From Candidatus Magasanikbacteria bacterium RIFCSPHIGHO2_02_FULL_48_18 (GTDB lineage: Bacteria > Patescibacteriota > Patescibacteriia > Magasanikbacterales > UBA922), in NCBI GenBank assembly GCA_001784285.1, contig MFQC01000003.1, positions 84,151 through 142,158 on the forward strand: a stretch of DNA of 58,008 nucleotides, written 5' to 3'. The first letter of the stretch is position 1. Each line of letters begins with the position of its first letter. Made by a program: the position numbers and the translations under genes. Of the stretch, positions 472 through 53,460 are shown piece by piece. Under the pieces are notes generated by a model. The model worked only from the letters and a program-made list of their open reading frames with translations. It was not told where the DNA came from and did not search any database.

Positions 472-1035
472 TTATGTGTTGGTTGGAAAGATTTTTTTCT
501 TGAATGTTGATAGAAAGGTTTTGGATTGGTTTATTTCTCCAAATACATGGAGTGTTAATTCTTTTGCGGGGAGTTTTGTTGATTGAATGGCGCGAAGAAA
601 TTGGCTGAAGGAAATCTTTTTTATTGTAATTTTTTCTCCAGGGTCCAGTTGCTGGGCCTGTTTTTTTTGACAATTTCGTGCGATAAAAGTATATATTTTC
701 CATTCCATTTTTATATATGGGTCAGTGGCCATATACAATTCCCAATCGTTTGAAATATATCCTGTTTCTTCAAGAAGTTCTCTTTTTGCGCATTGGAGTG
801 GTGTTTCTCCCTCGTCTTGCCGGCCGCCAATGAGGGATACATGCCGTTTCAATCGAGGTTGTTCTTCATTGAGTACCAAAATTCGGTTTCCTTCCGTTGC
901 AATAATTTGGACCGTATTGGGCCGTTTGAGCATTTCAAATGTTTCATATGATCCATCAAACATTTTTTGTTTCCACTGGTAGGTGTCAAAAATAATACCT
1001 TTGTGGACCAGCTTTGCATTTTTTGGAAGTTTCAT
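472..1035 (-). CDS. Nudix hydrolase
   Basis: Nudix box GGRQDEGETPLQCAKRELLEETG (GX5EX7REUXEEXGU). Its start overlaps the upstream gene's stop (ATGA at 1032-1035). Confidence 0.85.
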   Translation of the reverse strand: MKLPKNAKLVHKGIIFDTYQWKQKMFDGSYETFEMLKRPNTVQIIATEGNRILVLNEEQPRLKRHVSLIGGRQDEGETPLQCAKRELLEETGYISNDWELYMATDPYIKMEWKIYTFIARNCQKKQAQQLDPGEKITIKKISFSQFLRAIQSTKLPAKELTLHVFGEINQSKTFLSTFKKKIFPTNT

Positions 1036-8030: not shown

Positions 8031-8690
8031 TCATGATCCAAGTCTCTTTTCCATCTCTGCCACCGCTGCTTCAAAATCAAAGCCATAGTATTGTTTTTTC
8101 AGTGCTATGAGCCGTCGGTACTTATTGGTTGGTTTGCCCCTATAGAATTTCGTTGAAATCTTTGACTCCAAATTCTCAATTTTTTGCTCAAGGTCTAGGA
8201 TTTTTCCATACTCAAACAATTTGAATCTTCTATTTTCATTTTTGCTTGCGTAACTTAAATTACAACAATGACGACATGCGAAATAGTCCCCTGCTTTATA
8301 CAAAACTCCGACGCGTCGTCCACAATACACGCCATTTCTATACCATGGACATTGAAACCAGTACCTCTTGCCACCCAGATTACACGAGGTGGAAGTAAAG
8401 GGTATTCCATAATTGAAATCGGTTTTCTCTCCCGTTGTCCGATCTGTTTGAGTATAGGTCAGGCGTGCGTTGGGCTTCTCATCATCCATAAAAGTTTGTA
8501 AGCCAACACTACTTTTGTTTCCGCTACTCAGGTATGTCCATGTAACCGTGCCACTTCGAAAAGAGCCGCCGAGATAGCCCCACTGTTTGAGTACGCCTAT
8601 AGACATTTTCAAGAGGTGGTCTGCTTCTTCTTTTTTATTCCGACAATAATGCCTCATAGATTGTATTTGTTTATATCTTACCGAAATCAT
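8031..8690 (-). CDS. Cys-rich hypothetical protein (putative zinc ribbon)
   Basis: CNLGGKRYWFQCPWYRNGVYCGRRVGVLYKAGDYFACRHCCNLSY, followed by a coiled-coil tail. No family is recognised with certainty. Confidence 0.5.
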   Translation of the reverse strand: MISVRYKQIQSMRHYCRNKKEEADHLLKMSIGVLKQWGYLGGSFRSGTVTWTYLSSGNKSSVGLQTFMDDEKPNARLTYTQTDRTTGEKTDFNYGIPFTSTSCNLGGKRYWFQCPWYRNGVYCGRRVGVLYKAGDYFACRHCCNLSYASKNENRRFKLFEYGKILDLEQKIENLESKISTKFYRGKPTNKYRRLIALKKQYYGFDFEAAVAEMEKRLGS

Positions 8691-8757
8691 TAGAGAATTC
8701 TTTGATATTATTTTTTTGATTAACCATCATTTTTCTCCAAAATAGGCAAAAAATAAA

Positions 8758-10926
8758 TTACCCTCCACCCTCACTCACTATATCTTTTTCAGAGGAAACA
8801 GTGAGTTGATCTGTAGGGGTAATGAGTAGCTGTCTTTTGTCATCAGGGTCTGCATCCTGCGAGATAAGACCAGCAGTCTCAAGCATCGGAATTATTTGCT
8901 GTCTCATCTGCCAATCTGGCAACATACGTCCGTACACTTGGTAATGCTTTTTCAATATCTCTTTACGTGTAATACCTGCCTTTTCCTCGGCAAGGCCATA
9001 TAGGTTTTTTTCTTCATACGCTGGCACAATAACATCTTTGTATAGATCATAGACATACGGCGGAAGATTGTACTCTTGACTTTCAGATATTTTATCCCAT
9101 AATTTCAATGCTTCCGCAAAGTCTTCCTGCGTTGCGACAATTGTCGATCCCTCTCGTTCACGAAACCAAACATTCAGAAGCGCAAAGATTTTTGTGAGTC
9201 CCATAAGTCTACCAATGTCTCGCTGATGGCGTGGTTTGAGCTTGGATCGTTTTGAGAAAAATTCCTGCTCAATGATTTCTGGATTTTCAATCCGTATTTC
9301 ATCTATTGCTTCGTCTTTGATTGCCTCGATTCTTTTTTTCAAGAGTATTCGTTCGGGGTCTGCATTGAGGTTTTTTGCGTATGCTTCATTATCAGAATCT
9401 TTTTTGATTTTTTCCTGTATGGCAAAGCGGAGTTTTTCTTGGCTCGTTTGTGGTGAGAGAAGAATAAATCGAGTACTTTCTTGTTCATCAATCTCCAATC
9501 CTGCACTACAGAAGATTACAGCGGGATACCCACGGAGAATCACGGTCTTGGTTGCATTTCCACCTTTTTGATTTTTATCCGTTATCTTTGAAATCATTTC
9601 CTTTTGATCATGCGACAAGAGCGAACGTAAGCGTTCCAGTAAGCTATTGTGTGGTTGATCCAAAAAAATGAGTATCTTCCGTGAGAGGTCAACGAGCATA
9701 GTATTTGTTTCTTTGTCATAGTCGCCTTGTTCGTGAAAAAAGGCTTTTGGTGAACAATCACCGAGTTTCATCACGTCTTCATTTGGAAACAGGGTTGATA
9801 CTTCCATAGGAATAAAACTTTTTCCTGTGGAAGATGGTGCGTTGAAGCTCAAATTGAATTGAGATTGTTCGGTATATGCGGAAAGCGCACAAAGAAACGT
9901 AATGAGTTTGTTTTCTTCGTCTTTTTTTATCGTAAGCCCCAGTACACGGATAATATCTTCGGAAGTCAGGAGTTTGAATTGTGATGTATCAATGGGAAAT
10001 TTACCTGCTACTTGTTTTGAACATTGGTACATGAGCTCGTCTGGATTGCCATTGTATTTGGTTATGTAGTCCGTGATGTCCTTTCCATCTGTCATGCGTT
10101 CGGGCAAGGTGATTTTGTATATGGCTTTTTTGGGTAATTGGGTATCAAGTGAAGCAATAAGTTTTTCTGCTCCTTTTTCACCAGCGTCATCTTTGTCGAA
10201 GCATATATGAATCTTTTTCAAGTTTTTCAAGTGTGCGATCCATTCTTCTTTGAATGTACCAGCTCCTGCCGTGGAAGTAATTGCGGGTATGCCGATACTG
10301 GAGAGAAGCATGCTATCAAATTCACCCTCACATATCACGATCTCACCGTTTCCTTTGAGCATGTCCCAGCCAAAGAGTGTGGCTGTACTCCCTGCGGGGT
10401 AAAAACGGTATTTGTCTGTTTCTTTGGGTTTATTTGGGTCTAGGCGGAGCTTGAAGAACGCAAAATCACCATCTTGGTTTTTGATGGGTATGGTAATCCA
10501 GTTCATGCCATAGAATTGCCCCCAGCCGAGTTTGTAATGGGCTATGAGAGCGTCTGTAAGGCCTCTGGCGTGCAAATATGTCCGTATGTGGTCTGGTAGT
10601 GCCTCGTGGCATTGTTCCACCAGATCAACCGAAATCCTACCTTTTCCTACCTTTTTTGGTTTCGTGGTTTTTCGTGGAGAAATAGATATATCATCTATCG
10701 TATCTCCAAGGTGTTTGGCAAGCGTAACGATATTGCCAGTCTCACCGCATTTTTTGCAATTGTATTGTCCTGTTTCGGCGTGAAAATACAAGTGTGCTTC
10801 GTTTGGTCTGCTGTCTTTGTCGCAATCATTGAATACGCATTTGGCAACAAGCTCTCCGTTTCGTTCGGTAAATGCTATGCCTTTTTGCGTTAGATATTCT
10901 GTGATTGCAATTGTTTGAAATTCCAT
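8758..10926 (-). CDS. Primase-helicase-like replication protein (zinc finger + Toprim + P-loop NTPase)
   Basis: Zinc finger C..C...HLYFH..GQYNCKKCG. Toprim motifs VICEGEFDS and CFDKDDAGEKGA. Walker A FNAPSSTGKSF in the C-terminal half. Confidence 0.8.
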   Translation of the reverse strand: MEFQTIAITEYLTQKGIAFTERNGELVAKCVFNDCDKDSRPNEAHLYFHAETGQYNCKKCGETGNIVTLAKHLGDTIDDISISPRKTTKPKKVGKGRISVDLVEQCHEALPDHIRTYLHARGLTDALIAHYKLGWGQFYGMNWITIPIKNQDGDFAFFKLRLDPNKPKETDKYRFYPAGSTATLFGWDMLKGNGEIVICEGEFDSMLLSSIGIPAITSTAGAGTFKEEWIAHLKNLKKIHICFDKDDAGEKGAEKLIASLDTQLPKKAIYKITLPERMTDGKDITDYITKYNGNPDELMYQCSKQVAGKFPIDTSQFKLLTSEDIIRVLGLTIKKDEENKLITFLCALSAYTEQSQFNLSFNAPSSTGKSFIPMEVSTLFPNEDVMKLGDCSPKAFFHEQGDYDKETNTMLVDLSRKILIFLDQPHNSLLERLRSLLSHDQKEMISKITDKNQKGGNATKTVILRGYPAVIFCSAGLEIDEQESTRFILLSPQTSQEKLRFAIQEKIKKDSDNEAYAKNLNADPERILLKKRIEAIKDEAIDEIRIENPEIIEQEFFSKRSKLKPRHQRDIGRLMGLTKIFALLNVWFREREGSTIVATQEDFAEALKLWDKISESQEYNLPPYVYDLYKDVIVPAYEEKNLYGLAEEKAGITRKEILKKHYQVYGRMLPDWQMRQQIIPMLETAGLISQDADPDDKRQLLITPTDQLTVSSEKDIVSEGGG

Positions 10927-38728: not shown

Positions 38729-39325
38729 ATGTCTTCAGGACAATCACTCGATAAATTGATGTACTCGTTTGTCATGGAGGACGTCCTCAAGGGCTTTTTT
38801 ATCTACGTGCCGCCGGGATACGTGGCTTGTGTGTACGATCTTGGACGAGGAGTATTAAAAAAAGTTCTCACGCCGGGGTTGCATTTTAAAATTCCGTTCT
38901 GGCAAAAGGCAAAGCTGTTCAACACGCAAACATTGGAATACAGCATTTCCCGAGAATTCAATCCGCAAAATGAAAAAGCCATGGGAGATATTCCTACTGG
39001 CGCGGTTACCGAAGACGGCAAACGCATTGGCGTTGAAGGAACTATTTTGCTTCGTCTTGATATTCATCAAATTCCGGCTATTTGGCAAACCATTGGAGAA
39101 GATTTTGTGGCAAAAATTATTCGGCCCACGGTCCGAAGCCGCATCCGCATGGTGATGAGCCGGTTTGAATTTCACGACATTGTGGGCCAAAAACGCGATT
39201 CGGTTGAAACAGAATTGAAAAATGAACTCGAGCGCATTTTTTACTCCCGCGGTATTTATGTGGAAAATGTATTATTGAGCGAGGTCGCATCTGTCGAAGA
39301 ATACAAACGGACAGCGGCAGAGTGA
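38729..39325 (+). CDS. SPFH/Band-7 (prohibitin/HflC-like) domain protein
   Basis: PGLHFKIPFWQKAKLFNTQTLEYS and a downstream SPFH-like pattern. Confidence 0.7.
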   Translation: MSSGQSLDKLMYSFVMEDVLKGFFIYVPPGYVACVYDLGRGVLKKVLTPGLHFKIPFWQKAKLFNTQTLEYSISREFNPQNEKAMGDIPTGAVTEDGKRIGVEGTILLRLDIHQIPAIWQTIGEDFVAKIIRPTVRSRIRMVMSRFEFHDIVGQKRDSVETELKNELERIFYSRGIYVENVLLSEVASVEEYKRTAAE

Positions 39326-39340
39326 TTATTGTTTGCTTCA

Positions 39341-39371
39341 AAAAAATCATCCTTTGATAGGATGATTTTTA
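39341..39371 (+). terminator. Rho-independent terminator
   Basis: AAAAAATCATCCT-TTGAT-AGGATGATTTTT. Confidence 0.8.
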
Positions 39372-39392
39372 TTTGGTTCATGGATACCAAAT

Positions 39393-39421
39393 TTGACAAC
39401 GGTTTCGCCTGGTGTTATATT
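39393..39421 (+). promoter_or_regulatory. Consensus-like promoter of the hrcA operon
   Basis: TTGACA (39393-39398), 17-nt spacer, TATATT (39416-39421). Confidence 0.6.
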
Positions 39422-39446
39422 ATCACTCAAAGGCGAAGAGTGATAA
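39420..39446. promoter_or_regulatory. CIRCE-like HrcA operator (variant)
   Basis: TTATCACTC-N9-GAGTGATAA versus the canonical TTAGCACTC-N9-GAGTGCTAA. It has a symmetric G-to-T / C-to-A change and overlaps the -10 element. Confidence 0.75.
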
Positions 39447-39462
39447 TTCCAGACACAAATGT

Positions 39463-40143
39463 ATGGAAGAAAGAAAAGAAAAATTGCTCCGGCTCGTGAT
39501 AGAAACCTACGTTAAAACGGCTGAACCAATCGGGTCACAGTTTTTGATTGAAACAGCTGTTATGGATGTGAGCGGAGCAACTGTAAGAAACGAAATGCGA
39601 GAATTGGAAGAAGAAGGACTCTTAACGCACCCACACACGTCCGCCGGACGAATTCCAACAGAACGTGGATATATCTATTACATGGAACACCTCTTGCGGC
39701 CCGTATCCATACCCCTGCATGCCCGGGCAGAATTGAAAAAAATTGAAGAAATAGCCAATACTAAAAAACAAAAAACCAGATCCATTGCAAAGGTTGTCGC
39801 GAGCTATACCAATAGTGCGGTTATCGTTGCTTTTGGAGACGACGTCGTGTATTATACGGGCATTGGAAATCTATTTTCACAGCCAGAGTTTCAAAATTTT
39901 ACGCTTACTGTTGATGTTTCCGCCATGTTTGATGAATGCGAAAAACACATCGAAACATTACTTGAACGGATGTCAGAAAAAGAGGTAACGTCACTTATTG
40001 GATCGCAAAATCCTTTGGGCGCTGAGTGCAGTGTTGTTGGTTTTAAAAATCAACATATGACGCTTTTTTCCATTTTTGGCCCCATAAGAATGAATTACGC
40101 AAAAAATATGTCCTGTCTGTCTTATATTCAACACATGATATAA
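39463..40143 (+). CDS. hrcA: Heat-inducible transcription repressor HrcA (short, 226 aa)
   Basis: LLRLVIETYVKTAEPIGSQFL......VSGATVRNEMRELEEEGLLTHPHTSAGRIPTERGY. Confidence 0.85.
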   Translation: MEERKEKLLRLVIETYVKTAEPIGSQFLIETAVMDVSGATVRNEMRELEEEGLLTHPHTSAGRIPTERGYIYYMEHLLRPVSIPLHARAELKKIEEIANTKKQKTRSIAKVVASYTNSAVIVAFGDDVVYYTGIGNLFSQPEFQNFTLTVDVSAMFDECEKHIETLLERMSEKEVTSLIGSQNPLGAECSVVGFKNQHMTLFSIFGPIRMNYAKNMSCLSYIQHMI

Positions 40144-40150
40144 AAACTGT

Positions 40151-41023
40151 ATGTCCGAAACAGTGCCAAAAAAAGAGCGAGATATTTCCGTCATAGTTGG
40201 CCTCGTTCTTCAAAATGAAAAAGGGGAAATATGGTTTGGCCGAATGCCAAAGTGGGGGGGGCTATGGGCGATCCCGGGGGGACATGTGGAAAGAAATGAA
40301 TTGATTGAAGAGGCCGCCAGGCGAGAGATACAAGAAGAAGTCGGGCTTGATCTACAAGAATTGGAGTATCTCGGACATGCCGAATATATTGAACCAAAAG
40401 AATATCATATCCCAAAGCACTTTGTTTCGTTTGAATATCGTGCACGCGTAGACGGATGGCCGACGTGCAAAACCAATGAAGAATTTACAGAAACCCGTTG
40501 GATGACTATTGACGAAGCCCTGAAACAGCCCGACGTATGCCCCCCCACGCGGCATCTCCTCAACCAGATGCAACAAGACAAGACCTGCGTGTCATGTGAG
40601 GGACACAAAACCAAATGGCTTCGGGCGCAGGCCGATTACCAGAATTTAAAAAAAGAAATAGAAAAAATGAGAGGGGAGTGGGCGGCCATGAGCGAACTCC
40701 ACATTTTGGAAGAGTTTATTCCGGTGTATGACAATTTTAAAAAAGCTTTTGTGCATGATGTGTCGGAAGGGGATGTGACACGGTGGGAAAATTGGAAAAA
40801 AGGCATCGCGTATATTCAGAAACAATTTGGAGATATTTTACGAGCACATCAAATTGAAGAAATAAAAACCACAGGAGAACCATTTGATCCCGAACGCCAT
40901 GAAGCAGTGGGCGAAGAAAAAAAAGATGACACACCGTCCGGAATAATTCTCAAAGAAATTGATGGCGGATATATGTTGAATGGAAAGGTTGTGAAGGTGG
41001 CAAAAGTAATTATTGCAGAATAA
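40151..41023 (+). CDS. grpE: Nudix hydrolase domain fused to nucleotide-exchange factor GrpE
   Basis: Residues ~10-135 carry the Nudix box GGHVERNELIEEAARREIQEEVG. Residues ~150-290 carry the GrpE core: RAQADYQNLKKE, IPVYDNFKKA, GEPFDPERHEAV, GGYMLNGKVVKVAKVII. Confidence 0.85.
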   Translation: MSETVPKKERDISVIVGLVLQNEKGEIWFGRMPKWGGLWAIPGGHVERNELIEEAARREIQEEVGLDLQELEYLGHAEYIEPKEYHIPKHFVSFEYRARVDGWPTCKTNEEFTETRWMTIDEALKQPDVCPPTRHLLNQMQQDKTCVSCEGHKTKWLRAQADYQNLKKEIEKMRGEWAAMSELHILEEFIPVYDNFKKAFVHDVSEGDVTRWENWKKGIAYIQKQFGDILRAHQIEEIKTTGEPFDPERHEAVGEEKKDDTPSGIILKEIDGGYMLNGKVVKVAKVIIAE

Positions 41024-41057
41024 GTAAAGTAAAGTCTTAAGATAATAACTTCGATGT

Positions 41058-43001
41058 ATGCCAAAAATTCTTGGAATTGATCTTGGAACAACCAACTCCT
41101 GCATGGCCATTATTGAAGGAGGACAGCCAAAAGTGCTGGAAAACAAAGAAGGCAACCGCACAACGCCGTCGGTGGTTGCGATGTCCAAAACAGGGGAGCG
41201 CCTTGTGGGTCAATTGGCGAAACGCCAGGCAGTGACCAATCCAAAAAATACGCTCTACTCCATCAAGCGTCTTATTGGACGAAAACCGGGCGACAAAGAA
41301 GTACAGCTCGTCAAACAACACATGCCATTTGCCATTATTGAAGACGGGGATCGCGTCAAAGTCACCATGGGGGACAAAGACTACAACCCGCCGGAAATTT
41401 CGGCCATGGTATTGCAAAAACTGAAAGCCGACGCTGAGGAAAAACTGGGAGAAAAAATTGAAGAAGCGGTCATTACCGTTCCCGCCTATTTTGACGATTC
41501 ACAGCGCCAGGCAACCAAGGCGGCTGGGGAAATCGCCGGACTCAAAGTGAGCCGCATCATCAACGAACCCACCGCCGCGGCGTTTGCATACGGTTTTGAC
41601 AAAAAAACCGATCAAAAAATTGTCGTCTACGACTTGGGCGGAGGAACGTTTGATGTGTCCGTTCTTGATATTTCTCATGATGATGGGGGGCAGTCAACCG
41701 TGGAAGTCAAAGCAACCAACGGGGACACGCATCTTGGCGGAGACGATTTTGATAAAAAAATTATTGAGTGGATTTTGGAAGAATTTAAAAAAATCGAAGG
41801 GATTGATCTCTTCAAAGATCCACTGTCACTTCAGCGCGTGAAAGACGCGGCCGAGAAAGCAAAAATTGAACTTTCAAGCACGCCGGAAAGTGAAATCAAT
41901 GAGCCCTTTATTACGTCCGGAGCGGATGGCCCAAAACATCTAAATCTCAAACTCACGCGCGCAAAACTTGAAGAGCTGGTGGGGGATTTGGTAGAAAAAA
42001 CAATGGTCCCTGTCCAAAACGCGCTCAAAGATTCCGGCTACGGAAAAGGAGACATCCAGGAAGTGATTCTGGTGGGAGGCATGACCCGCATGCCGCTCGT
42101 TCAAAAAAAAGTGGAAGAATTTTTTGGCAAAAAGCCAAATGTAAGCGTGAATCCGGATGAAGTGGTAGCGATTGGCGCGGCTATTCAGGCCGGACAGCTC
42201 CAGGGCGATCTTGGAAAAGAAATCCTCTTGCTTGATGTGACGCCACTTTCTCTTGGAATTGAAACGATGGGAGGCGTCATGACAAAACTTATTGACCGAA
42301 ATACGACCATTCCAACAAAAAAAACCCAAACGTTTTCCACCGCTCAAGACAATCAGCCCAGTGTCGAAATTCATGTGCTTCAAGGTGAACGCGAAATGGC
42401 GGCCGGCAACAAAACGCTTGGCAAATTTCATTTGGATGGCATTCCACCCGCTCCGCGCGGCGTTCCCCAGGTTGAGGTGTCGTTTGATATTGATGCAAAT
42501 GGTATTTTGAATGTGTCTGCAAAAGATAAAGCAACCGGCAAACAGCAATCCATTCGCATTGAAGCGTCAAGCGGGCTGTCGGATGAAGAAGTGGAAAAAA
42601 TGAAAAAAGATGCTGAAATTCATGCGGCGGAAGATAAAAAAAAGCGTGAATTGATTGACGTAAAAAATACAGCTGATACAATGATATATACGACAGAAAA
42701 AATGATGAAAGACGTGGAAGAAAAGAAAATCGCGATTACGGATGACGAAAAAAAGAACGTTAACGACGCGCTTGGCGCGCTGAAAGAACTGAAAGACAAA
42801 GACGATATTGAAGCAATAAAAAAAGCATCTGAATCGCTTTCCACGGCCGCGCAAGCCGTTGGCATGAAGATGTACCAGCAAGAACAGCAAAAAGGCGGCG
42901 GACCAAACCAACAAAATACAGCGCCGGACGATCAAAAGTCAAATGATCCTAAAAATGATACGGTTGAAGGGGAAGTCGTCGACGATGAAGGAAAAAAGTA
43001 A
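41058..43001 (+). CDS. dnaK: Chaperone DnaK (Hsp70)
   Basis: [33 protein letters not shown] and the C-terminal lid. Confidence 0.97.
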
Positions 43002-43008
43002 AAAAATT

Positions 43009-43203
43009 ATGCTCCGTGATCATATCTTGAAGAAAAAAAGACAGCACCGGCAAATTGTTCTTATTGTTGGCCTCCTTGTTTTGTATGGATTGGCCGGCGG
43101 CACTGCGCTATTTTTTGACATGCGACGCATTGGTCTTGTCCCGCTTTTCATTATCTTTGTTTTGGTTGGATACATTTTAGACACGATACAAGAACACTCA
43201 TAA
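43009..43203 (+). CDS. Small two-TM membrane protein (64 aa; start uncertain)
   Basis: Basic N-terminus then IVLIVGLLVLYGLAGGTALFF and LVPLFIIFVLVGYIL. An alternative start at 42985 overlaps the dnaK end. Confidence 0.4.
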   Translation: MLRDHILKKKRQHRQIVLIVGLLVLYGLAGGTALFFDMRRIGLVPLFIIFVLVGYILDTIQEHS

Positions 43204-43206
43204 ATT

Positions 43207-43734
43207 ATGAAATCAGCCCTCTTTCTTCTCGCCGTTATTGTTGTTGGCGCACTCGGGTATTTGGCTGGCGCCGGAAAAATTGATTACAAAAAAATGACGG
43301 GGGAGATCAATCCATTCGTCCAAAAAACCGTTGACAAAGCGGGAGAGGAACTGAAAAAGGCAGGAGATTCGATCAAAGAAAAGCAAATGGACAAACTCAA
43401 AGAAGGAATTGCAGAAAGCATAAATGAAAAAGAAACGACAGACAAAAAAGAGAACGGGACGATAGCTAAATTAGACATTACCGGAAGCTGGTCTGTGGAA
43501 AAGGGACCCTACCAAAAAATTATTATTTTTGAAGATGGATCCTACAGTGCTTTTTTGAATGACAAACCGCTTATTGAGGGCAATTGGTATTTTATTGACG
43601 GCGTCTTCGCTCTTGTCGCAAAACAGAATCCGGAATTAAGCGAAGGTTTTTCTGCCATCACGAAGAACGGCGATACACTCACACTCCAAACAAACGAAGG
43701 AACTCTTACCTGGAAAAAAATTGAACAAGAATAA
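43207..43734 (+). CDS. Membrane-anchored hypothetical protein
   Basis: N-terminal TM segment ALFLLAVIVVGALGYLAGA, a charged linker, and a beta-rich C-terminal domain. Confidence 0.5.
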   Translation: MKSALFLLAVIVVGALGYLAGAGKIDYKKMTGEINPFVQKTVDKAGEELKKAGDSIKEKQMDKLKEGIAESINEKETTDKKENGTIAKLDITGSWSVEKGPYQKIIIFEDGSYSAFLNDKPLIEGNWYFIDGVFALVAKQNPELSEGFSAITKNGDTLTLQTNEGTLTWKKIEQE

Positions 43735-43745
43735 ATACGCGTACC

Positions 43746-44843
43746 ATGGCAAAAGATTATTATGATATTCTCGGCGTAAGCAAAGACTCGTCGGACGACG
43801 ACATAAAAAAAGCGTTTCGGAAACTCGCCCACAAATATCATCCGGACAAAAAAGGCGGCGACGAAACAAAATTTAAAGAAGTCAATGAAGCTTATCAAGT
43901 CTTGGGCAATCCGGAAAAAAGAAAACAATTCGACCAATATGGTGCCACCTTTGACCAACAAGGCGGTTTTGGGGGTGGCGCGACATGGGAAGACTTTATG
44001 CGGGCGGCCAGAAGCGGCCAGGGCGGGGGATCCCAGTTTGATTTTGGCGGCATGGATTTTGGCGACCTCTTTGGAGATATGTTTGGCTTCGGCGGTGGCA
44101 GAAGAGTGCGAAGAGACAGCCGCGGACGCGATATTCAGGTGGATATCGAACTTTCATTTCGCGAGGCGGCCTTTGGAACGGAAAAAGAAATCCGCCTTAC
44201 CAAAAATAATTCCTGCGACGTGTGCGGGGGTTCCGGCGCGGAACCCGGTTCTTCTCTCAAAACATGCGACACCTGCCACGGACGCGGCCAAGTAGCGCAA
44301 ATGCAACGCACCATTCTTGGCGCCATGCAAACCGTCACCGCGTGTCCGACATGCAGGGGACAAGGGCAAAAGGCTGAAAAAATGTGCCAGCATTGCGGAG
44401 GAGACGGAACGGTTCGAAGTGAATCCGTGTATCGCACAAAAATTCCTGCAGGCATTAACGACGGAGAATCCATCCGGCTGAGCGGCAAAGGCGAGGCGGC
44501 CGGGATCAGAGGAACGGCAGGCGACCTGTATATTCAAGTGCATGTTCATGAGGAAAAAGGATTTGAGCGCGATGGCGCAGATGTTTTTACAGAAACGACG
44601 ATTTCATATCCGCAAGCGGTATTGGGCGATACCGTGGACATTCATACGCTTGATGGCATCAAAAAACTTGTCATTCCTGCCGGAACCCAGCCGGGACAGC
44701 AATTTCGTCTCAAAGGACTCGGCATTCCGTATCTGCACGGCGGGGGACGGGGGAGCCAGTTTGTAAAGGTCTTGGTGAGTGTGCCAAAAAAAATAAGCCG
44801 AAAAGGAAAAAAATTGTTGGAAGAATTGCAGGGAGAATTATAA
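43746..44843 (+). CDS. dnaJ: Chaperone DnaJ (type I)
   Basis: J domain with HPD (KYHPDK), a G/F-rich region, and four CxxCxGxG repeats (CDVCGGSG, CDTCHGRG, CPTCRGQG, CQHCGGDG). Confidence 0.95.
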   Translation: MAKDYYDILGVSKDSSDDDIKKAFRKLAHKYHPDKKGGDETKFKEVNEAYQVLGNPEKRKQFDQYGATFDQQGGFGGGATWEDFMRAARSGQGGGSQFDFGGMDFGDLFGDMFGFGGGRRVRRDSRGRDIQVDIELSFREAAFGTEKEIRLTKNNSCDVCGGSGAEPGSSLKTCDTCHGRGQVAQMQRTILGAMQTVTACPTCRGQGQKAEKMCQHCGGDGTVRSESVYRTKIPAGINDGESIRLSGKGEAAGIRGTAGDLYIQVHVHEEKGFERDGADVFTETTISYPQAVLGDTVDIHTLDGIKKLVIPAGTQPGQQFRLKGLGIPYLHGGGRGSQFVKVLVSVPKKISRKGKKLLEELQGEL

Positions 44844-44849
44844 TATAAT

Positions 44850-45383
44850 ATGCTTCCTTCTCTGCCACATCCCTTCTCCCCCGATATTATTTTTTTTGAT
44901 ACCGAATTTAGCGATCTCGACACTCGAACGGGGTCGCTTTTGTCTTTGGGAATGGTAAAACCAAACGGAAAAGAACTGTATATTGAATTTGAACATGATG
45001 GGCAGGTCCATCCATGGGTAGAAAAACATGTGCTACCCACGCTGACACAACAAAAAATAAGCCATGAAACCGCGCAAGGAATGATTCGCCGCTTTATTGG
45101 CACGAACAAAAAGAAAAAACCATACCTCATGGCCTATGTCAATCAGTTCGATGCAATATTTTGGTATCAGCTCTTTGGGTCTCCTCAACATCATCCCGCA
45201 TTTTGGATACCGATTGATTTTGCGTCTATTCTCTTCGCGCACGGCATTGACCCAAACTCAATGGGGAAGCAAAGGTTTTTTGATTGGCTTGGTGTTGACA
45301 AAAAAGGCTTTACACTCCACAATGCGCTTGACGACGCAAGACTTTTGAAGGTGACATATGAAAAATTTTGGGAACGAATTTAA
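44850..45383 (+). CDS. DEDDh 3'-5' exonuclease domain protein (DnaQ/RNase-T-like)
   Basis: IIFFDTEFS (Exo I DxE) and HNALDDARLL (Exo III H-x4-D). Confidence 0.7.
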   Translation: MLPSLPHPFSPDIIFFDTEFSDLDTRTGSLLSLGMVKPNGKELYIEFEHDGQVHPWVEKHVLPTLTQQKISHETAQGMIRRFIGTNKKKKPYLMAYVNQFDAIFWYQLFGSPQHHPAFWIPIDFASILFAHGIDPNSMGKQRFFDWLGVDKKGFTLHNALDDARLLKVTYEKFWERI

Positions 45384-52383: not shown

Positions 52384-53460
52384 TTACAATTTGTGAGTAG
52401 CAAGGCTTTTCTTCAATTCTGGCAATATATGTTTGTATAAAACGGCATTATTACCAACCAATGGATAGGAGAGAACCTCATCAAGACCAAACCATCGCTT
52501 GTCCAGCACTTCCTCGTCGCTCCCCTTTCCGTCTCCTCCAATAATTCGAGTTATATACATAAGGAGATACACTTGAAAATGCACATGTTTTTCAAATCTC
52601 TGCACTTCATCAATGCCAACATACCGGATCTGGTCAACAATTTCGATGGCATACCCCGCTTCTTCGTATACTTCTCTTTTGAGCGTTTCTTCAATGTCTT
52701 CGCCCATTTCAACGCTTCCGCCCGGAAATTCCCACCGTCCGTGAACCTCTGGCACATGCGGATCATTGCGCTGGCTCATGAGAATTTTTCCTTCTCGAAT
52801 AATCAATGCAAGCGGAACCACGATGTGTTGCCCGCCATAGGTTTGTTGAATAAAATATCGCATGGTGCTCATGGCTTTTCCCCGATGGCTGATATCATTT
52901 TTTTCTTGAACAGTCATATCGCCATATGTTTTATTGACCGGACGGCCATAGGCATCATTTTCCGTCACATAAAAAATTCGATTAAATCCATACTCCATCT
53001 TGGCAGGAGCCGCAGGAATTTCAGAAAGAATGCGTCCGTGTATTTTCCCCATAGATACAAAAAGAGAATCCTGTTGTGGATCGCACAATGCCAGCGCCAC
53101 CTGAAACGAGGCCGTTCTTTTCATATCCGGCTTTTCTGATAATTTGTTTAAAACCGTTTTGCATTTTTCGTCACTGGTATCGGCGACCCGCGCGCTTTTC
53201 ACCCCCGGCCACCCTGGCACCGCATCGAGAAATAAACCGGCGTCATCCGCAAGTGTCACCATGTTCGTTTTTTGCGCATAATACCGCGCTTTAATAATTG
53301 CATTTTCTTCTATCGTTTCGGCAGGTTCGTCCGGAGGAGGAAAAGACATGCCTAAATCCTCAAGAGTGAGCACAGATAAAAAAGGAAGATGGAGCAAACC
53401 CTGCCGCAATTCTTCTTTTTTTCCTTTATTGGTTGTCGCCAAAAGAATGGTTATATCCAT
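52384..53460 (-). CDS. rdgB: RdgB/HAM1-type non-canonical NTP pyrophosphatase fused to a Nudix (MutT-like) domain
   Basis: The N-terminal half has LATTNKGKKEEL and DDAGLFLDA..G.PGV.SAR. The C-terminal half carries the Nudix box GGSVEMGEDIEETLKREVYEEAG. Confidence 0.85.
   Translation of the reverse strand: MDITILLATTNKGKKEELRQGLLHLPFLSVLTLEDLGMSFPPPDEPAETIEENAIIKARYYAQKTNMVTLADDAGLFLDAVPGWPGVKSARVADTSDEKCKTVLNKLSEKPDMKRTASFQVALALCDPQQDSLFVSMGKIHGRILSEIPAAPAKMEYGFNRIFYVTENDAYGRPVNKTYGDMTVQEKNDISHRGKAMSTMRYFIQQTYGGQHIVVPLALIIREGKILMSQRNDPHVPEVHGRWEFPGGSVEMGEDIEETLKREVYEEAGYAIEIVDQIRYVGIDEVQRFEKHVHFQVYLLMYITRIIGGDGKGSDEEVLDKRWFGLDEVLSYPLVGNNAVLYKHILPELKKSLATHKL

Follow-up and report, generated by a model that had tools for sequence, protein, structure and literature searches.

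A Nudix hydrolase domain fused to GrpE

We analysed a 58,008-nucleotide (nt) stretch of contig MFQC01000003.1 from Candidatus Magasanikbacteria bacterium RIFCSPHIGHO2_02_FULL_48_18 (hereafter the window), which carries a hrcA-grpE-dnaK-dnaJ operon in which the grpE gene encodes an additional N-terminal Nudix hydrolase domain. This gene, nudix::grpE (40151..41023, + strand, stop codon included), is a single intact open reading frame (ORF) for a protein of 290 amino acids (aa). An earlier reading of this DNA, made from the sequence only (the sequence-only reading), had described one ORF with a complete Nudix box in its N-terminal half and a GrpE core as its C-terminal part, and had suggested a Pfam search as a check. 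Indeed, the ORF is uninterrupted and both profiles exceed their curated cut-offs, NUDIX (PF00293) matching aa 15-135 (E 9.5e-24, 84.4 bits versus a cut-off of 21.1) and GrpE (PF01025) matching aa 148-290 (E 2.1e-32, 112.5 bits versus 25.8), the latter spanning profile positions 26-165 of 165. The Nudix box (aa 44-66, GHVERNELIEEAARREIQEEVGL; 40280..40348, +), lying within the stretch quoted in the sequence-only reading (aa 43-66), is a full match to GX5EX7REUXEEXGU, its residues being G44, E50, R58, E59, E62, E63 and G65. In an AlphaFold2 model built on an alignment of homologues, the Nudix fold covers aa 12-143 (40184..40579, +) with a predicted local distance difference test score (pLDDT) of ~95, and Foldseek matched it to small Nudix hydrolases. 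The GrpE core, aa 148-290 (40592..41020, +), was delimited by the PF01025 match, the AlphaFold2 secondary structure, alignment to solved GrpE proteins and Foldseek, while a CxxC motif, C146-V-S-C149 (40586..40597, +), is found right where the long GrpE helix begins. Both folds were modelled confidently with an overall predicted template modelling score (pTM) of 0.52, a combination that fits two modules without a fixed mutual orientation. By every test applied, the fusion protein belongs to the GrpE family and to the Nudix superfamily.

A homologue search of 5.8 billion proteins gave 1159 matches, and the best 120 of these (to which all counts out of 120 below refer) carry PF00293 and PF01025 in one chain without exception, with lengths of 265-451 aa and 40-55% identity to the window protein. 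They originate from independent NCBI, JGI, ENA and Logan assemblies, and the named entries among them are annotated as 'nucleotide exchange factor GrpE' of Candidatus Magasanikbacteria, Patescibacteria or Parcubacteria. Among GTDB species-representative genomes, a scan returned 80 loci (L001-L080), 15 of them fused, likewise with an uninterrupted ORF, and 65 unfused. The Nudix-GrpE fusion is a lineage feature, and the same fusion, which the sequence-only reading had proposed to look for in related genomes, recurs there. That reading had also asked that a frameshift or an assembly join be excluded. An artefact of this kind, in which a frameshift, an overlooked stop codon or chimeric assembly would have joined a Nudix gene to grpE, is refuted because the fusion recurs in independent assemblies: both domains stand in one protein in at least 120 protein clusters from several assembly sources and in 15 GTDB species genomes, the junction motif (see below) is conserved and the synteny is identical. 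Nothing was found in its favour, and we give it practically no chance.

Operon context and predicted heat-shock control

The gene order yidC-like, Band_7, hrcA, grpE (with or without the Nudix domain), variable inserts, dnaK and dnaJ was found in all 80 loci. Given that this synteny is identical in fused and unfused loci, the fused gene is the orthologue of ordinary grpE. It is the only grpE in the grpE slot at every fused locus examined, and no second grpE locus from the same assembly was present among the 80 loci returned, which are loci and not whole genomes. The hrcA-grpE-dnaK-dnaJ setting noted in the sequence-only reading was confirmed by Pfam. hrcA (39463..40143, +), upstream of nudix::grpE, encodes a short form of the repressor with the HrcA C-terminal domain (PF01628, E 1.4e-11). 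Its true start is probably the ATG at 39463 (MEERKEKLL...), which is favoured because the mechanical ORF start, a GTG at 39412, would run through the promoter and operator. Downstream, dnaK (41058..43001, +; PF00012, E 1.8e-249) starts 35 nt after the nudix::grpE stop, and dnaJ (43746..44843, +) encodes a J domain, a CXXCXGXG zinc finger and DnaJ_C. Two ORFs without Pfam matches lie between dnaK and dnaJ, one of 86 aa with a markedly hydrophobic C-terminal half (42943-43203, +) and one of 175 aa (43207-43734, +). As their homologues recur in the same interval of L001, L003, L004, L008, L010 and L033, both are probably real operon members. The interval between grpE and dnaK, so short in the window, holds 0.5-4 kb of variable cargo in many relatives; in L087 the cargo is a small heat-shock protein of the HSP20 type plus two GNAT acetyltransferases.

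A sigma-70-like promoter (TTGACA, 17-nt spacer, TATATT, with an extended TG; 39393..39421, +) agrees with the consensus at 11 of 12 positions and is the best site within 39250-45000, preceded by a terminator-like hairpin (39342-39370) that closes the upstream Band_7 gene. Directly 3' of the -10 hexamer lies an inverted repeat, TTATCACTC-N9-GAGTGATAA (39420..39446), which resembles the controlling inverted repeat of chaperone expression (CIRCE) and is the presumed HrcA operator. It has two mismatches to TTAGCACTC-N9-GAGTGCTAA and is the sole match in the window, where 0.02 would be expected by chance. The hallmarks of an HrcA/CIRCE regulon, hrcA as the first gene and a CIRCE-like repeat at the promoter, are present, and by analogy with such regulons the fusion protein should be under HrcA/CIRCE heat-shock control.

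The GrpE half and the region displaced by the Nudix module

The GrpE half aligns to Escherichia coli GrpE residues 62-193 and also to the GrpE proteins of G. kaustophilus and T. thermophilus. The AlphaFold2 model of this half (pLDDT 70-94) shows a long helix (147-201), a further helix (209-232) and a beta domain with strands within 235-289, and Foldseek returned 1dkg_B and 9a81_A. The helix bundle and beta domain are retained, and so is the long helix from about residue 53 of E. coli GrpE onwards, which makes it ~12 residues shorter than that of E. coli. Compared to canonical bacterial GrpE (E. coli 1DKG, G. kaustophilus 4ANI and T. thermophilus 3A6M), the protein shares the PF01025 core, long helix, bundle and beta domain, but differs in its shorter helix, in the CxxC at the helix start and in having a folded enzyme domain in place of the disordered tail. 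No disordered N-terminal tail ahead of the helix is present in the window GrpE, where the Nudix fold is found instead; such a tail is not family-defining for GrpE in Pfam terms, yet its absence is a real difference.

In unfused relatives, GrpE is ~170 aa long and begins with an M[ST]DEQK-type start followed by 25-45 acidic low-complexity residues, after which many of them display the junction motif (K)SFFxKKCKNCEK...EEYKxGWQ-RAxADYxNL. Alignments of sister proteins place the Nudix domain where the acidic stretch sits, upstream of the junction motif if the pair shares one; the motif is common to pairs such as L006/L031 and L008/L046 and is absent from L035 and L025. The short unfused GrpE proteins of sister Magasanikbacteria (such as L031, L050, L035 and L025) have the same synteny and, in the tabulated pairs, a core 64-77% identical to that of the fused proteins, but carry the acidic tail at the position of the Nudix domain. 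These alignments indicate that the part of GrpE displaced by the Nudix module is limited to its short, acidic and disordered N-terminal tail, some 25-40 acidic residues in the pairs L006/L031, L013/L050 and L009/L035. The sequence-only reading had the module replacing the helical thermosensor N-terminus, which does not hold, as the coiled-coil helix is kept and it is the acidic tail that is displaced. The E. coli tail is in contact with the substrate-binding domain of DnaK and influences substrate affinity (PMC12915176). A 2025 review regards its role as unsettled and does not mention enzymatic fusions (PMC12987570).

A CxxC motif just upstream of RAxADY was observed in 26 of 53 GrpE loci of the Magasanikbacteria clade, fused or not, in none of 26 outgroup loci, and in 55 of the 120 fused relatives. 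In 23 of the 26 loci it lies exactly 15 residues before the R of RAxADY, the distance being 8 in the window protein. Paired in a GrpE dimer, two such CxxC motifs could bind Zn between the subunits or form a redox-sensitive disulphide like that of GRPEL2 (PMC6089081).

Catalytic residues, fold and predicted substrate class of the Nudix half

An alignment of 42 fused proteins shows no variation at G44, E50, R58 and E62, and conservation of at least 90% at E59 and E63 and, beyond the Nudix box, at H90, E111 and W117; the catalytic core GX5EX7REUXEE is kept in 118 of the 120 relatives. The sequence-only reading had made its assignment depend on a NUDIX hidden Markov model match of the N-terminal half, which scored well above its cut-off, and on conservation of the catalytic Glu residues in orthologues, which is borne out by these alignments. 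The Nudix module is under purifying selection, with a ratio of nonsynonymous to synonymous substitution rates (dN/dS, omega) of 0.055 in the close pair L008/L010 and of ~0.12-0.23 in more distant pairs, for which dS is near saturation. Foldseek comparison of the model with solved Nudix enzymes gave E values of 1e-10 to 1e-8, with target-normalised TM scores of 0.72-0.85 for 3grn, 4dyw, 4kyx, 5gp0 and 3dku, showing that the model has the alpha/beta/alpha sandwich fold. The Nudix domain looks catalytically competent, as a conserved and selected fold. Since the catalytic residues are conserved and omega is well below 1, a Mg2+-dependent pyrophosphohydrolase activity is predicted for this half. 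Two fused homologues, P0077 and P0088, retain the domain with a degenerate box in which RQIKEK and RKISET, respectively, replace REUXEE, and may represent a catalytically dead sub-lineage.

The closest solved relatives, as determined by PDB sequence search, Foldseek and profile comparison, are small single-domain Nudix enzymes with 22-31% identity. They include NUDX1 of A. thaliana (6FL4/5GP0), NudI (3OGA/6DT3), NudJ/YmfB (3DKU), R. felis 4KYX, M. mazei MutT (3GRN) and NUDT15, with all of which the domain shares the complete box, the length of ~140 aa and the fold, differing in its covalent linkage to GrpE, as well as GDP-mannose mannosyl hydrolase and B. pseudomallei MutT. A profile built from fused and stand-alone Nudix domains gave its best PDB matches with E values of 4e-20 to 1e-14. 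The top match was 4kyx, whose name, 'ADP-ribose pyrophosphatase MutT', is a structural-genomics label, and NUDX1, NudI, NudJ and 4kyx ranked ahead of the hydrolases of diadenosine tetraphosphate (Ap4A). Ap4A/Ap6A hydrolases (3i7u, 1vc8 and 1kt9) were present, but mid-ranking, among the structural and profile matches. Scores against NCBIfam equivalogs fell short of the cut-offs for MutT (NF008044; 48.1 versus 148 bits), RppH (40 versus 139 bits) and NudC (40 versus 158 bits). An attempt to assign the substrate from NCBIfam, PDB and Foldseek gave generic MutT-like matches only, below every equivalog cut-off, and the Nudix half is in no characterised Nudix equivalog family.

Subfamily markers downstream of the box were also inspected. 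ADP-ribose pyrophosphatases reportedly carry a conserved proline ~15-16 residues after the Nudix box; a proline at +16 is found in the window protein (P82), but in only 55 of 120 relatives. Ap4A/ApnA hydrolases have a conserved tyrosine ~16-18 residues after the box, whereas the aromatic residue here lies at +19, outside +16 to +18, and is F in 60 and Y in 53 of 120 relatives. No convincing ADP-ribose or Ap4A signature is present in the module. Of ADP, ADP-ribose and Ap4A, the possible substrates put forward in the sequence-only reading, the latter two find no clear support in these comparisons, in which the nearest solved relatives are small (deoxy)nucleoside triphosphate ((d)NTP) pyrophosphohydrolases of the MutT/NUDX1/NudI/NudJ type and no clear ADP-ribose or Ap4A hydrolases. 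The best that can be said is that the Nudix half is a predicted MutT/NUDX1/NudI-like pyrophosphohydrolase acting on (d)NTP or on nucleoside diphosphate derivatives (NDP-X). Against the fused-domain profile, stand-alone proteins of ~140 aa score as high (E 1e-40 to 1e-48) as the fused members, and by sequence similarity the module belongs to this large family of stand-alone MutT/NUDX1/NudI-like enzymes.

Repeated presence and absence of the module among close relatives

Neighbour-joining trees were constructed for DnaK (605 columns) and for the GrpE core, with the presence or absence of the module judged at the GrpE locus. Fused and unfused species are interleaved on both trees, and the same sister pairs occur on each: L006 (fused) and L031 (unfused), with a DnaK identity of 94%; L013 (fused) and L050 (unfused), 92%; L009 (fused) and L035 (unfused), 89%; and L003 (fused) and L025 (unfused), 86%. 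Because such close sister pairs differ in the module, there have been many gains or losses of it at shallow depth. The DnaK alignment gave no sign of co-evolution with the fusion, none of its columns tracking the fusion state (738 tests; smallest p 0.012, Bonferroni limit 7e-5). Read-through of an adjacent Nudix gene was rejected as the origin of the fusion, given that hrcA abuts grpE with no gene between them in 65 of 65 unfused loci; the four stand-alone Nudix ORFs found in the flanks lie elsewhere or on the other strand. In a neighbour-joining tree of 256 Nudix domains, fused and stand-alone members are interspersed and internal branches (0.01-0.06) are short compared to terminal ones (0.4-0.6); a single origin of the fused domains is not decidable from these sequences.

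The similarity of the Nudix half and that of the GrpE core are weakly correlated across pairs (r = 0.36). In 33 pairs the GrpE core is at least 80% identical but the Nudix half less than 60%, the reverse being seen in 2 pairs. One such pair of fused genes, L009 (5920-6837) and L087 (7285-8178), was compared by codon analysis. The GrpE core shows 98% aa identity, with a dN of 0.023 and a proportion of synonymous differences (pS) of 0.60, versus 50% aa identity, a dN of 0.43 and a pS of 0.78 in the Nudix half. The neighbouring genes hrcA, yidC and Band_7 are 61%, 56% and 82% identical, respectively, with saturated synonymous sites (pS 0.70-0.78). As synonymous sites are near saturation throughout the two loci, extreme constraint on the GrpE core is sufficient for the discordance and, as far as these codon comparisons go, explains most of it. 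Cassette replacement by recombination, considered in view of the pairs with a 98% identical core and a 50% identical Nudix half, is not needed to account for these figures and was not demonstrated; given the 2 pairs with discordance in the opposite direction, it may nevertheless have taken place. The pS of the GrpE core in this pair is below that of the flanking genes, which could reflect unusually strong constraint, codon selection or a more recent exchange of the 3' half.

Functional interpretation

We lean, with slightly better than even confidence, towards a bifunctional protein whose two halves are autonomous, one being an ordinary GrpE exchange factor and the other a house-cleaning-type Nudix pyrophosphohydrolase that is co-expressed in the heat-shock response. 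The gene would provide the organism's GrpE, the nucleotide-exchange factor of DnaK, expressed from the promoter-CIRCE-hrcA-grpE-dnaK-dnaJ heat-shock operon. The C-terminal 145 residues would dimerise through the retained helix and open the DnaK nucleotide-binding domain like any GrpE, while the N-terminal 140 residues would hydrolyse a nucleoside di- or triphosphate derivative, most plausibly a non-canonical or damaged (d)NTP or NDP-X. Being part of the GrpE chain, the enzyme would come under heat-shock (HrcA) regulation and be fixed at one copy per GrpE chain. We infer that both activities are retained and that the two modules function independently, in addition to the substrate class.

Several points weigh against this reading. 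The predicted substrate class derives from characterised enzymes that are 25-30% identical. In view of the contact that the E. coli tail makes with the DnaK substrate-binding domain (PMC12915176), its displacement is, by analogy, unlikely to leave chaperone behaviour wholly unaffected. Many lineages, at 40-55% identity, have maintained the fusion, and the physical link itself could be selected. Furthermore, a stand-alone Nudix gene (8557-9015, +) lies in the dnaK-dnaJ interval of the unfused L035, and P0125, a close stand-alone homologue, is encoded two genes after groES-groEL in another genome of the candidate phyla radiation (CPR) (L081 5387-6426, +), in the row groES-groEL-CxxCxxCC-Nudix-Nudix. 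The arrangements in L035 and L081 hint at a recurrent Nudix-chaperone association, or are a coincidence. A consistent chaperone neighbourhood of stand-alone homologues was not found, since one of three lies near groES-groEL and the other two are in unrelated contexts.

The sequence-only reading had proposed nucleotide hydrolysis coupled to the Hsp70 cycle. In such a mechanism the tethered Nudix domain would act on the nucleotides of the cycle and bias exchange to ATP rebinding under stress, by destroying the ADP released by GrpE, by removing damaged adenine nucleotides or by clearing the alarmone Ap4A from DnaK. The fusion of an intact catalytic site to the exchange factor, kept in at least 118 protein clusters, is what would be expected of it, and the Ap4A/Ap6A hydrolases among the structural and profile matches, the Nudix gene in the dnaK-dnaJ interval of L035 and the one homologue near groES-groEL point in the same direction. 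In E. coli, this alarmone can be photo-crosslinked to DnaK, GroEL and ClpB, and mutation of apaH causes heat sensitivity (PMC10148737, citing Johnstone and Farr 1991). Nevertheless, the claim is unsupported, as sister species with 89-94% identical DnaK differ in the module, one of each pair managing without it, and no DnaK residue co-varies with the fusion. In the DnaK-GrpE structure 1DKG, the coiled coil has its N-terminal end directed away from the nucleotide cleft, and by analogy the Nudix module would hang on the end of the GrpE helix distal to the cleft. Taking together its dispensability between sisters, the lack of DnaK co-variation and this distal attachment, an obligatory role of the module in nucleotide exchange is unlikely. 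The profile ranking, headed by NUDX1, NudI, NudJ and 4kyx and not by Ap4A hydrolases, and the marker positions, with the aromatic residue at +19 and proline at +16 in fewer than half of the relatives, argue in the same sense, and the dN of the Nudix half, ~20 times that of the GrpE core in the one pair compared, is unlike that of an interface locked to DnaK. We consider coupling of this kind unlikely. A little less probable still is that the module is a working part of the chaperone, which hydrolyses a stress nucleotide poisoning DnaK (Ap4A, damaged ADP or ATP) or senses it to gate substrate release, two Nudix copies being held at the substrate-binding-domain end of the GrpE dimer. Together with the CxxC, GrpE would then be a nucleotide- and redox-responsive switch and, if this is true, the first enzymatic nucleotide-exchange factor for an Hsp70.

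The Nudix domain might instead be a folded replacement of the tail for which hydrolysis is secondary, serving as a nucleotide- or alarmone-binding sensor or as a steric or dimerisation element that tunes DnaK substrate release or the thermal switch of the coiled coil. Its position exactly where the E. coli tail contacts the DnaK substrate-binding domain (PMC12915176), the shorter helix, the lineage-specific CxxC at the junction and the persistence of the domain in P0077 and P0088 despite their degenerate boxes are consistent with this view. Retention of every catalytic residue in 118 of 120 relatives favours catalysis over binding alone, however, unfused relatives have an ordinary acidic tail at the same place, and a pTM of 0.52 gives no evidence of a fixed interdomain interface in the AlphaFold2 model, so that a mainly regulatory or structural role appears improbable to us. 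We attach slightly less weight again to a neutral or slightly deleterious accident, in which a Nudix gene landed in frame 5' of grpE and was tolerated and repeatedly lost with no selected benefit. The patchy distribution among close relatives would be accommodated, as would the abundance of the Nudix family in these bacteria, where it occurs in several architectures including a Ham1-Nudix fusion in the same window. Where selection is measurable it is strongly purifying (omega 0.055), though, the catalytic core is kept in nearly all relatives at 40-55% identity, and no decaying or frameshifted module was found at any of the 15 fused GTDB loci, which makes an accident a doubtful explanation.

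A literature search found no description of a Nudix-GrpE fusion, or of GrpE fused to an enzyme, in agreement with the sequence-only reading, which was aware of no characterised example. Anabaena All4144, a GrpE with an additional helix-turn-helix (HTH) domain (bioRxiv 10.1101/2025.04.14.648684), and mitochondrial GRPEL2, a redox-regulated GrpE (PMC6089081), are precedents for an accessory domain or a cysteine-based switch on the exchange-factor core; unlike in these cases, the accessory part here is a Nudix-superfamily enzyme. The architecture is visible in automated annotations but named only 'GrpE'. What is new is its repeated presence and absence among close relatives and the exact region that the Nudix module displaces.

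GrpE is among the best-studied co-chaperones, and whether its tail modulates substrate release from DnaK is under current debate. Close relatives with a fused or a tailed GrpE offer a ready-made comparison for the function of the tail and for a link of nucleotide sanitation or alarmone turnover to Hsp70. The fusion also constitutes a 'Rosetta-stone' link between a large uncharacterised family of ~140-aa Nudix proteins in genome-reduced CPR bacteria and the heat-shock response. If the modules are independent, it would exemplify how streamlined genomes place housekeeping enzymes under stress control by domain fusion. For database users, entries named only 'nucleotide exchange factor GrpE' conceal a second, predicted activity.

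Other Nudix proteins and database records

Three Nudix domains are encoded within the window. The two besides nudix::grpE, already noticed in the sequence-only reading, are real, with Pfam matches for both. A 187-aa Nudix protein (472..1035, -; PF00293, E 1e-13) is encoded immediately downstream of a 484-aa ORF (1032-2486). The other is a 358-aa Ham1/ITPase-Nudix fusion (52384..53460, -) with an N-terminal PF01725 match (E 2e-40) and a C-terminal NUDIX match (E 2e-18), in which two nucleotide-sanitising activities are predicted in one chain. Proteins of 340-515 aa with a C-terminal Nudix domain, similar to this Ham1-Nudix protein, occur among the relatives of the GrpE-fused domain. Two longer relatives, P0084 (451 aa) and P0154 (449 aa), extend N-terminally beyond the Nudix-GrpE unit by ~150 residues; P0084 displays the additional Nudix-type Pfam matches PF13869 and PF22327, suggesting a tandem Nudix-Nudix-GrpE form. 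L004, L006, L011, L012 and many other TPA metagenome-assembled genomes with a Patescibacteria-type operon are titled 'uncultured Gammaproteobacteria bacterium', which appears to be a labelling error in the records.

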